From a virus (Duplodnaviria; Caudoviricetes), in IMG/VR virus record IMGVR_UViG_3300033463_000049, positions 1-64,000 of that record: 64,000 bases of DNA, one strand, 5' to 3'. The notes beneath the pieces are model-generated. The model did not search any database and was not told where the DNA came from. It saw only the letters and a list, made by a program, of their open reading frames with translations. The translations under genes and the position numbers were made by a program. Shown here piece by piece: positions 2,956 through 24,467 of this stretch (positions are counted from its first letter, which is position 1; each line of letters begins with the position of its first letter).

Positions 2956-3423
2956 TTATAATTTTAATGGCGTTCTGTAACACTCATCTTGTTCCCGGAT
3001 CAAGAATCTTGTTATTCCTACAAAAGTAAAGAAACTCTGATTTAACAGATACAATTCATGCTTTCTCCAAAATCTCGAAACTTGTGGTACAATATGTCCA
3101 GGAATTATTCGTTCCCCGTACTTCATTGTTGCGCACAATGGGTGTTGATTTAAGAATTCCTCTGTTAGTCTAAATGTGACATAACCAAAATACTCCCACG
3201 ACCAATAGCCAACATAGACATCTTTTGGCATCAGACAGTCTTCCGGAGCTAATTCCGTTGGTCTATCTTCACGTGCAAAGTTTAAGTATCCGAGCAGAGG
3301 TTTGCCGGTTTTACTTTCTACGGTACATATTATTGTAACAGGTCTTACAATACTTATATACCCAGGAACAAGAATTAATTCTATAGCTCCTTGAACATTG
3401 ATTGTGTCTCCTCGTTTCCACAT
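2956..3423 (-). CDS. hypothetical protein
   Basis: 155-aa ORF colinear with its neighbours. Confidence 0.7.
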   Translation of the reverse strand: MWKRGDTINVQGAIELILVPGYISIVRPVTIICTVESKTGKPLLGYLNFAREDRPTELAPEDCLMPKDVYVGYWSWEYFGYVTFRLTEEFLNQHPLCATMKYGERIIPGHIVPQVSRFWRKHELYLLNQSFFTFVGITRFLIREQDECYRTPLKL

Positions 3424-3456
3424 AATAATTATAATTTAAAAGTTTACAGATTCTAG

Positions 3457-3509
3457 GAGTGAGTGCGGGAGTCGAACCCGCAGAATTAACTCGTCCAAAT
3501 TACTCACTC
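3457..3509 (-). ncRNA. tRNA-like minihelix (8-bp acceptor plus T arm, no D or anticodon arm)
   Basis: GAGTGAGT/ACTCACTC stem; GCGGG-TTCGACT-CCCGC T arm; 20-nt connector. Confidence 0.7.
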
Positions 3510-3800
3510 TTTGTTCGCGTTTAGGTAGTACGCACCGACTTCACGCAGCCTCCTTGAGGCCCGTGTAGTCTGCAATGTTAATATTGCCAGTTAAATTTAT
3601 ATCAAAGCGCTTAATGTGTTTACTTCCACTGCCGTCAAATGCATTCAGGCCCGTGTTAAAATGGGGCGCGTGACAGTCGCCCCGCCAGTGTTCGATTGAG
3701 TGTATATTTTCGGAACTGGTAGTGGACCTGGAGGGTATGCCTCCCTCGTCCGAACAGTTTACCTCACACACGCTAAGATTTCGCACTAAAGATCGTGGAA
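3510..3800 (-). ncRNA. ssrA: circularly permuted (two-piece) tmRNA; outer boundaries approximate
   Basis: Acceptor piece ends GGAC-GAGGG-AGGCATA-CCCTC-CAGGTCC-A (3723) and lies upstream of the coding piece starting GGGCCTG (3652). G3:U70 pair and A73. Tag frame 3588-3541 encodes GNINIADYTGLKEAA-stop after TAACT. Confidence 0.85.
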
Positions 3801-4117
3801 ATAACTATTCCATAATGGAGATTCCCCATCTCCGTCTACTTCATTGCATGAACAATAATCTTTGACTTCTGGGTTATCTTCTAAGGACTTTAACATTTCC
3901 TCGGCCTTTTCATCAGATACTTGGTAAAAAACTAATATATGTTTCATATCAAATAAATATTTGTGAGCAAAGGTGGACGCGACCCGCCAATGCTCTGTGA
4001 CGCTATTTTAAAGCCTCCTGGCGCATTTTACAGTCGTTGTGGTCAGCTGTTCCACTTTAACTATAAAACGCGTCAGAGAGGCTGTAAATGGCTTATGAGT
4101 GTGTACGGTGATATGAC

Positions 4118-4388
4118 TGATACAAAGATACTCGCATGTCGTACAGACGTACTTTGATAGTCTGTATGAGCTAAGCTGGTACAATGACACACATACAGTT
4201 TTGCTATTGAGCATAAAAGCATATTTTACGTCTTAGCTAGACGTTTGAATCCACCATTGATACAAAGATACTTAGGCATGTGTCGATTCACATAACACCT
4301 TTGCAATACTCTTCGTGGTCTTATTTGTCTAATTACAATGCCGTTTCCTAAATGCAAATTGGTGTATTACACGTGATACAAAGATACT
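4118..4388. repeat. three exact 15-bp direct repeats TGATACAAAGATACT
   Basis: Copies at 4118-4132, 4258-4272 and 4374-4388; the minus strand contains TATCTTTG (Bacteroidota -7 box TAnnTTTG). Confidence 0.85.
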
Positions 4389-17515: not shown

Positions 17516-17569
17516 GACCTATATGAAGGCACCCTTAAGAAAGGCTGGGATCGTTCCCCAGTATAGGTC
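17516..17569 (+). ncRNA. tRNA-like minihelix (8-bp acceptor plus T-like arm)
   Basis: GACCTATA/TATAGGTC; CTGGG-ATCGTTC-CCCAG; 21-nt connector. Confidence 0.6.
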
Positions 17570-17570
17570 C

Positions 17571-17648
17571 TGCCCCGTAGTGTAAATACCTTAAACACAG
17601 AGGATTCTAGCCCCTCATTTGGTCGCAGGTGACGGCCCGGGGTGACCA
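17571..17648 (+). tRNA. amber suppressor tRNA(CUA), probably Gln, with non-canonical D and T loops
   Basis: TGCCCCG-TA-GTGT-AAATACCTTAA-ACAC-A-GAGGA-TT-CTA-GC-CCCTC-ATTT-GGTCG-CAGGTGA-CGGCC-CGGGGTG-A-CCA; anticodon 17607-17609. Confidence 0.85.
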
Positions 17649-24314: not shown

Positions 24315-24396
24315 GACCTTATAGCTCAATTGGTAGAGCACCCGCCGGTATACAGTCCGATACGGCATGTTCTCGGTTCGAGTCCGAGTTGGGTCA
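24315..24396 (+). tRNA. tRNA-like gene with aberrant anticodon arm
   Basis: Canonical D arm GCTC-AATTGGTA-GAGC and T arm CTCGG-TTCGAGT-CCGAG; middle arm GCCG-G-TAT-ACAGTCCG-ATA-CGGC. Confidence 0.65.
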
Positions 24397-24467
24397 CAAT
24401 TTAGATTAACAGTTTCCGCGCTGCAATGCGGAGTTTAATTAATGTTAATTTAATTTATTTTTATTTT

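Follow-up and report, generated by a model that had tools for sequence, protein, structure and literature searches.

A probable two-piece tmRNA gene in a TAG-recoded crAss-like phage and the family to which it belongs

Two-piece tmRNAs have been recorded in three bacterial lineages and in mitochondria, as well as in aquatic phages bearing proteobacterial-type copies. The permuted genes, and how tRNA enzymes process them, have been described (PMC11915505), and the alphaproteobacterial, betaproteobacterial and cyanobacterial forms (RF01849, RF01850, RF01851) are merged in the Rfam model RF04321, tmRNA_permuted, whose seed holds sequences of these three groups only (PMC11915505). Among unique phage tmRNA structures, 53 of 133 were two-piece (PMC9004378), and permuted genes are found in the marine phage Melnitz and in pelagimyophage-like contigs. 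One-piece and TLD-only phage forms have been described in mycobacteriophages, namely the tmRNAs of the Bxz1 group and the RNA of DS6A (PMC4131195). No paper dealing with a tmRNA family of crAss-like phages was found beyond mentions in pipelines.

The locus described here lies on the minus strand of a 64,000-nt stretch of phage DNA (hereafter the window), belonging to a phage with a complete genome of 102 kb, recovered from a bovine gut metagenome. An earlier note, made from the sequence alone, had read it as a phage-encoded, circularly permuted tmRNA gene with a tag of its own and an altered elbow. A scripted re-reading of the coordinates placed the parts of a permuted tmRNA at 3779-3517, in the order 3' half, spacer, 5' half, and found the gene order and all the coordinates of the first reading to be right. 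The stretch 3779-3517 is very probably a functional two-piece ssrA of a TAG-recoded crAss-like phage near the Suoliviridae/Oafivirinae. The terminase of the window phage is 81% identical to that of phage cr272_1, which is classified in the Suoliviridae, Oafivirinae. The features of the locus are collected in Table 1.

Table 1. Parts of the permuted tmRNA locus and of the elements downstream of it (window positions)
Feature	Coordinates	Strand	Remarks
Acceptor piece	3723..3779	-	script coordinates, covariation, per-member anatomy
P2d, 3' strand	3779-3777	-	
P2c, 3' strand	3774-3771	-	
P2b, 3' strand	3770-3766	-	
Conserved internal loop	3765-3759	-	acceptor piece
P2a, 3' strand	3758-3753	-	
GAC	3750-3748	-	acceptor piece
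T arm	3747-3731	-	5-bp stem; loop AGGCATA at 3742-3736
Acceptor 3' strand	3730-3724	-	
Discriminator A	3723	-	
Intervening spacer	3653..3722	-	70 nt; presumed removed from the precursor
Coding piece, 5' part	3601..3652	-	re-read coordinates, covariation, model R1
Acceptor 5' strand	3652-3646	-	G1, G2, G3:U70; 7 bp with 3730-3724
D-loop region	3645-3634	-	GC where relatives carry GG
P2a, 5' strand	3633-3628	-	pairs with 3758-3753
Conserved loop GGAAGTAA	3627-3620	-	coding piece
P2b, 5' strand	3619-3615	-	
Bulge	3614-3610	-	5 nt
P2c, 5' strand	3609-3606	-	
P2d, 5' strand	3603-3601	-	
Tag frame GNINIADYTGLKEAA and stop	3541..3588	-	resume codon GGC 3588-3586; UGA 3543-3541
Post-tag hairpin	3517..3533	-	near-invariant loop (CTACCTAAGTG type), covarying stem
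Mini tRNA-like element	3456..3509	-	54 nt; dG -19.4, z -3.1
Acceptor stem of mini element	3508-3502 with 3464-3458	-	extended by G3509:C3457 (8 bp)
T arm of mini element	3481-3465	-	canonical; 20-nt connector in place of D and anticodon arms

The identification as a phage-encoded permuted tmRNA was upheld by searches of different kinds. In a permissive Rfam scan, RF04321 aligned end to end to the window gene at 42.9 bits (E 4.6e-7), a score under its gathering cut-off of 47 bits. The covariance model R1 (model positions 1-179), built from 13 relatives with the window left out, matched 3595-3776 over its full length at 106 bits (E 7.7e-26), the second-best match in the window reaching 15.7 bits. 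Moreover, blastn of the window gene against annotated phage tmRNAs gave an E value of 3e-22. As for the check with ARAGORN and Infernal that the earlier note had proposed, the end-to-end alignment to RF04321 speaks for the proposal, but neither ARAGORN nor Rfam at its gathering score calls a tmRNA at this gene. The low score is a property of the family, since its relatives reach 35-40 bits and all members (35-43 bits overall) stay under the cut-off. With introns allowed, ARAGORN reported a 'tRNA-Ser with a 604-nt intron' at 3456-4153, a call that was rejected as an artefact on account of its mismatched acceptor stem. The one-piece model RF00023 found in the window only a 17-nt T-arm match at 3465-3481, which is part of the mini tRNA-like element, and a one-piece order for the gene was discarded as well, the acceptor strand beside this T arm having no pairing to 3652-3646.

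Matches of the window gene in phage records were confined to three genomes, those of the crAss-like phages cr272_1, cr273_1 and cr131_1 (NC_055903, NC_055904, NC_055902), and each of them falls under a feature annotated 'transfer-messenger RNA, SsrA', for which the records give an automatic 'tmRNA' label only. These three genes are homologous to that of the window (78-84% identity over the tag-proximal 100 nt) and share with it the permuted order, the type of tag, the downstream tRNA-like element and the phage group. They have a canonical T loop and the D-loop GG and are found by ARAGORN as permuted tmRNAs ('tmRNA*') with the tags GNINVVDYTGLQEAA and GNYNVVDYTHVA, whereas the window gene, with AGGCATA and GC, is missed. 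Through motif scans in IMG/VR and JGI metagenomes the family grew to more than 20 distinct members from crAss-like phages and metagenome contigs, nearly all of them on contigs of ~100 kb and most of them called permuted tmRNA by ARAGORN. The window gene is indeed phage-encoded and permuted, but it is no singular case, as it belongs to this family of more than 20 members, three of which are labelled tmRNA in RefSeq. It is a new member of an automatically annotated, undescribed family, and the family in turn represents a novel version of the two-piece design.

Some peculiarities of single members were recorded along the way. In L145 (5258-6400; also in L147), a group I intron (RF00028, 83.6 bits) lies within the T loop of the acceptor piece; the insert is of ~860 nt and contains an antisense ORF, the joined exons give a canonical T arm, and the 'permuted' and 'intron' gene forms are in this way united in one gene. 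In most relatives (L003-L023) the acceptor piece is preceded at ~10-45 nt by a hairpin whose 10-bp stem covaries and whose loop, CTGATCA, is conserved; the window and L015 lack this hairpin and have a small ORF region (3786-3947) there instead. The contig L164, which came up as a T-arm pattern match, has GC-rich flanks and a T loop, GGCGGTA, of the alphaproteobacterial kind, and is probably an ordinary alphaproteobacterial two-piece tmRNA outside the crAss-like family. Four ruminant-gut metatranscriptome runs contained contigs over 3533-3653 and some over 3701-3780, mostly from relatives; one contig spans G3652 into the spacer, and the joint 3632>3753 has a 28-nt side only. As these matches are assembled contigs, from which ends, strand and transcription are not readable, they were excluded from the evidence.

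When compared with the alphaproteobacterial, betaproteobacterial and cyanobacterial two-piece tmRNAs (PMC11915505), the family shows the same gene order and likewise a trans-formed acceptor stem, G3:U70 and a P2 helix, and some of its members have the GGCNG T loop of the alphaproteobacterial type. Unlike those forms, it has a Gly or Asp resume codon, no pseudoknots, and a T stem and resume context of the Bacteroidota type, and it is encoded by phages of Bacteroidota. The permuted tmRNAs of Melnitz and of the pelagimyophage-like contigs are also phage-borne and rely on host SmpB (PMC9004378); they are, however, alphaproteobacterial in type and carried by aquatic myophages, in Melnitz together with a glutamine riboswitch, whereas the present family belongs to crAss-like podophages of gut and rumen and bears features of the host phylum, Bacteroidota. 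The tmRNAs of the Bxz1 group and the TLD-only RNA of DS6A are likewise encoded by phages without an SmpB of their own (PMC4131195), but they are one-piece or tagless and their hosts are Actinobacteria. The one-piece tmRNAs of Bacteroidota (RF00023; e.g., Bacteroides, Segatella and Paraprevotella loci L052, L053 and L046) have an almost identical 3' tRNA-like half, and they likewise have a GGC resume codon after TAACT or ATCT, a tag starting with GN or GE, and a gene end at A-C without a full CCA, as in the phage gene. The host genes differ in having the standard order, a length of ~395 nt, four pseudoknots and tags ending in ALAA, whereas the phage gene is permuted, ~200 nt in its mature form, free of pseudoknots and provided with a longer tag that ends in EAA, VA or LAA.

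The named structure, with 29 pairs, was tested for covariation in 17 relatives. Paired cells amounted to 93.9%, against 70.5% in shuffles, changes on both sides were seen in 21 of the 29 pairs, and the covariation score was 0.64, against 0.19 in shuffles and 0.07-0.14 in slid registers; every helix is supported by covariation. The two acceptor strands are paired at 7/7 positions in the window; the same is true of 18/19 relatives. Positions 4-7 of this stem covary, and G1, G2 and G3:U70 show no variation within the family. The alanine identity pair noticed in the first reading is present in the window (G3650 with T3726) and, like the discriminator A3723, invariant in the relatives (17/17 and 19/19). 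Acceptor stem and T stem are complete (7/7 and 5/5) in nearly every member, despite spacers that range from 17 to 176 nt. As regards P2, the proposed pairing GGCAGT/ACTGTT of 3633-3628 with 3758-3753 was confirmed by double changes (8/8 pairs of P2a), and P2b and P2c also covary, being 94-99% paired. The second pairing proposed for P2, a continuous 10-bp ACACATTAAG helix, had to be abandoned, since at several of its positions no more than 8-13 of the 19 sequences form the pair; the register that covaries is 3619-3615/3770-3766, the bulge 3614-3610 and 3609-3606/3774-3771. From P2 to the resume codon there are only 12 nt, A/U-rich; the window RNA has no room for PK1, and PK2-PK4 are all absent.

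The spacer (3722-3653), described from the start as 70 nt rich in hairpins, folds indeed as two hairpins (dG -18.5, z -3.3). Neither its length nor its sequence is conserved among the relatives. A terminator-like site was not found in the spacer, and a promoter/terminator scan of 3200-4200 yielded nothing above shuffle level. In the window gene the discriminator A is followed by C, and CCA is not encoded.

The origin of the permutation was approached by scanning one genome per species for a motif that runs from GGAC through the T arm to the first bases of the acceptor 3' strand. Bacteroidota account for 63 of the 80 motif-bearing genomes among the matches listed, and what the motif hits there is the 3' end of one-piece tmRNAs, for which ARAGORN gives G-initial tags (e.g., GENNYALAA); the final 34 nt of L013 recur without a change in Bacteroides sp. 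GD17. Furthermore, the resume context TAACTGGCAA and a tag start of the type GN.N are common to the family and to Bacteroidota tmRNAs, one host tag beginning with GNYN. In this context TAACT is followed by GGC AA, whereas an Ala codon is the resume point in non-Bacteroidota tmRNAs and in the RF04321 consensus. The 5' halves of the phage genes also have the D-loop/GAC region and AAGTAA after P2a in common with Bacteroidota tmRNAs, and in both family and host genes only A-C is encoded after the acceptor stem. Neither RF04321 nor the family model detected a permuted gene in 151 Bacteroidota genomes, where the best matches were 3' ends or 5' halves of one-piece tmRNAs; the statement of the earlier note that Bacteroidota tmRNA is one-piece holds in the genomes sampled. 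An nhmmer search with the coding piece gave no significant match in 126 bacterial tmRNA loci, so that homology with the host genes rests on the tRNA-like domain and on short motifs. From these resemblances, descent from a Bacteroidota-type tmRNA appears quite likely, bearing in mind that adaptation to host enzymes could mimic descent, and the permutation was probably an event of the family's own. The independent permutation put forward at the outset is something we infer from the Bacteroidota-like tRNA domain and resume context, which make it likely.

A different origin would be the acquisition of the family from an already existing two-piece lineage (alphaproteobacterial, betaproteobacterial, cyanobacterial or of their phages), followed by adaptation to Bacteroidota enzymes; this reading concerns the origin only, and under it no new permutation would have taken place. 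Partial matches of alpha_tmRNA (23.5 bits) and of beta_tmRNA (31 bits, in L001) over the tRNA-like domain would be expected from it, as would the GGCAG-type, alpha-like T loops of several members, and two-piece tmRNAs are a known cargo of aquatic phages (PMC9004378). However, most members, distributed over several subclades, combine a canonical T loop with the Bacteroidota T stem, so that the alpha-like loops look derived and recurrent. Bacteroidota traits can be recognized in the Gly resume codon with its upstream context and in the GN.N start, nothing beyond A-C is encoded at the 3' end, as in the host genes, and none of the 151 Bacteroidota genomes sampled yielded a permuted form with RF04321 or the family model. 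Overall, we consider an origin from an existing two-piece lineage possible but unlikely.

T54, Psi55 and C56, together with the GG of the D loop, normally form the elbow. In the window, the T arm has a complete stem (5/5) and a 7-nt loop, AGGCATA, while the D loop has GC, a combination that departs from the canonical elbow. The altered elbow is therefore real in this gene, but it turned out to be a trait of a subset of the family and not of the family as a whole. The members with a canonical T loop (TTCGA type) all keep the D-loop GG, and all seven others have lost it: besides the window gene, these are L008 (T loop AGACATA, D loop GT), L015 (a 6-nt T loop, D loop GT), L017 (GGCAGAG, with AG), L165 (AGCAGTA, with AG), and L168 and L169 (both GGCAGTA, with AG). 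The GGCAG-type loop resembles the alphaproteobacterial consensus GGCgGUA and looks recurrent, as it is found in two different subclades. Since non-canonical loops are the rule in alphaproteobacterial tmRNA, the elbow of the window gene does not bar it from being a tmRNA. The T-loop GCAT (3740-3737) is complementary to the D-loop ATGC (3644-3641), and the counterpart in L008, ACAT/ATGT, corresponds to one paired change (T loop G to A, D loop C to T). Such a 4-nt complement is in itself not significant (12-17% of shuffles), and a T-loop/D-loop contact rewired in the window copy through GCAT/ATGC is thus suggestive, with weight added only by the paired change between the window and L008.

These departures raise the question of whether the family is real and the window copy a decaying or inactive member that has lost its elbow (T54, Psi55, C56, G18, G19). 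A loss of this kind would fit the loops AGGCATA and GC, the silence of ARAGORN and the Rfam score under the cut-off, all of which also weigh against a functional gene, and it would fit the fact that the nearest relative, L015, has a different odd T loop. A further point against function is the absence of PK1, which is important in E. coli tmRNA. On the other hand, the helices of the window copy are intact (acceptor 7/7 with G3:U70, T stem 5/5, P2a to P2c), its tag is the same as those of L146 and L145 despite synonymous differences, and the paired change with respect to L008 keeps the 4-bp T-loop/D-loop complement. Moreover, a non-canonical T loop with loss of GG recurs in at least seven members, including loops like the consensus of the working alphaproteobacterial tmRNAs. 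An inactive copy is, in our judgement, very unlikely.

A comparable arrangement was noticed in the amber suppressor tRNA of the window (17571-17648, anticodon CTA), whose T loop CAGGTGA and D loop AAATACCTTAA can form a 4-bp duplex (AGGT/ACCT); it is conserved in the genome of L015 (L170) and parallels the elbow of the window tmRNA. Rewired tmRNA and suppressor elbows co-occur in the window and in the genome of L015, whereas the genome of L008 has a canonical suppressor, so that the two rewirings are not strictly linked. A more ambitious reading, in which a fourth bacterial-type two-piece origin took place in crAss-like phages out of a Bacteroidota one-piece gene, with loss of all pseudoknots, and in which the elbows of tmRNA and suppressor, the two RNAs of this lineage active at stop codons or non-stop ends, were both rebuilt as adaptive Watson-Crick duplexes, is doubtful and seems to us quite unlikely. 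If true, the rebuilt elbows might, for instance, evade a nuclease or a modification enzyme that reads the T loop, or be orthogonal to a host factor. A tRNA-like gene at 24315-24397 of the window (Rfam tRNA, 44.4 bits) is seen by ARAGORN only with introns allowed and has an irregular anticodon arm.

Returning to the window tmRNA, its tag frame consists of 15 codons (3588-3544) followed by UGA, and G1 and the resume codon are 64 nt apart, within the 63-68 nt observed across the family. Within the first nine tag codons, the first, second and third codon positions have 3, 4 and 8 variable sites, respectively, the N, D, Y and T codons show synonymous changes only, and the tag of the window is identical to those of L146 and L145 in spite of a different choice of synonymous codons. 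To judge from these substitutions, the tag behaves as a coding sequence whose peptide is kept by purifying selection, translation itself being a step that we infer. The coding-type substitutions and the fixed spacing are in agreement with the earlier reading of a tag proper to this RNA. In the family as a whole, tags end in EAA, LAA, EVA or VA, and the EAA ending might, as the earlier note supposed, affect protease targeting.

Downstream of the tag, no covarying pseudoknot partner was seen for the post-tag loop on inspection by eye, and neither the motif of this loop nor that of the GGAAGTAAA loop was found as such in host tmRNAs. The T arm of the mini tRNA-like element matches the tmRNA/tRNA consensus. 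An equivalent element follows the tag in every family member, with an acceptor stem that covaries, and the same position is occupied by a true tRNA-Met in L008 and by a near-complete tRNA in cr272_1. An acceptor stem with a T arm is a minimal RNase P substrate, and for this reason the mini element would set the 3' end of the coding piece, being probably a 3' processing signal for RNase P. A second mini tRNA-like element (17516-17569) adjoins the amber suppressor tRNA.

SmpB (PF01668) is absent from the complete 102-kb phage genome, whereas a control Bacteroides genome has one; SmpB, AlaRS, EF-Tu, RNase P and the CCA-adding enzyme would all have to be provided by the host. According to the proposed mechanism, the gene would be transcribed leftward together with the neighbouring tRNA genes, and the 3' half, lying upstream, would be joined to the 5' half further downstream by the acceptor stem and the long P2, the helices shown by covariation. 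Host RNase P would cut 5' of G3652, the trailer past A3723 would be trimmed and a host enzyme would complete the CCA, while RNase P acting at the mini tRNA-like element would free the 3' end of the coding piece. The acceptor piece of ~57 nt and the coding piece of ~140 nt would remain base-paired; host AlaRS would charge the molecule through G3:U70 and A73, and host SmpB and EF-Tu would deliver it to stalled ribosomes. Translation would resume at GGC 3588, appending (A)GNINIADYTGLKEAA.

Spacers as short as 17-20 nt would permit a closed loop, and a TLD-only phage tmRNA is on record (PMC4131195); the RNA could then be conceived as an uncharged tRNA mimic or decoy, either with a YrlA-like permuted body or as an SmpB-titrating domain of the kind proposed for DS6A, with the spacer staying in the RNA and the tag untranslated. 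Against such a decoy speak the purifying selection on the peptide of the tag frame, the fixed distance between G1 and the resume codon and the invariance of G3:U70 and A73. In addition, the free length and sequence of the spacer and the group I intron found in one T loop fit the removal of the spacer and not a structural loop, and a decoy appears highly improbable. A chance that can be practically neglected is that the region encodes an 81-aa protein and resembles an RNA by coincidence, because the frame 3541-3786, although open for 81 codons from GTG 3786, in 13 of 19 relatives is closed by an in-frame stop situated 3-19 codons upstream of the resume codon, is unalignable among the family in its spacer part and has zero Pfam or PHROG matches, and because conservation tracks the RNA helices with compensatory changes. 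This ORF, which the earlier note had considered as a possible conserved full-length protein, is by the same comparison an accident of the window sequence and not a protein gene.

The two-piece tmRNA is carried by a phage that reads TAG as sense, as had been supposed from the beginning: read-through lengthens ORFs to 1,953 codons, and eight ORFs of at least 600 aa contain 2-17 in-frame TAGs. In-frame TAGs are also present in the terminase, portal and virion genes of cr272_1, and tRNA(CUA) in the genomes of L008, L013, L015 and L019. All six tmRNA-bearing relatives that were checked are TAG recoders and belong to one clade; this is consistent with a tie between tmRNA carriage and UAG recoding, to be read as the association seen in a single clade. 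Within the window, the effect of TAG read-through is strong from ~12 kb on and small in the first 12 kb, which hold the tmRNA and most of the tRNA genes, and this suggests that the 0-12 kb region is an unrecoded early arm.

At the Rfam threshold the whole family goes unseen, and ARAGORN fails to call the members with a rewired elbow; for this reason tmRNA carriage by crAss-like phages is undercounted. All the carriers checked read TAG as sense, which makes a link between recoding and ribosome rescue open to test. If functional, these RNAs would represent a minimal design of tmRNA, devoid of pseudoknots and with an elbow that can be rewritten in several ways. If their separate, Bacteroidota-type origin is true, they would offer a new natural experiment on the requirements of tmRNA in an abundant group of gut and rumen phages.
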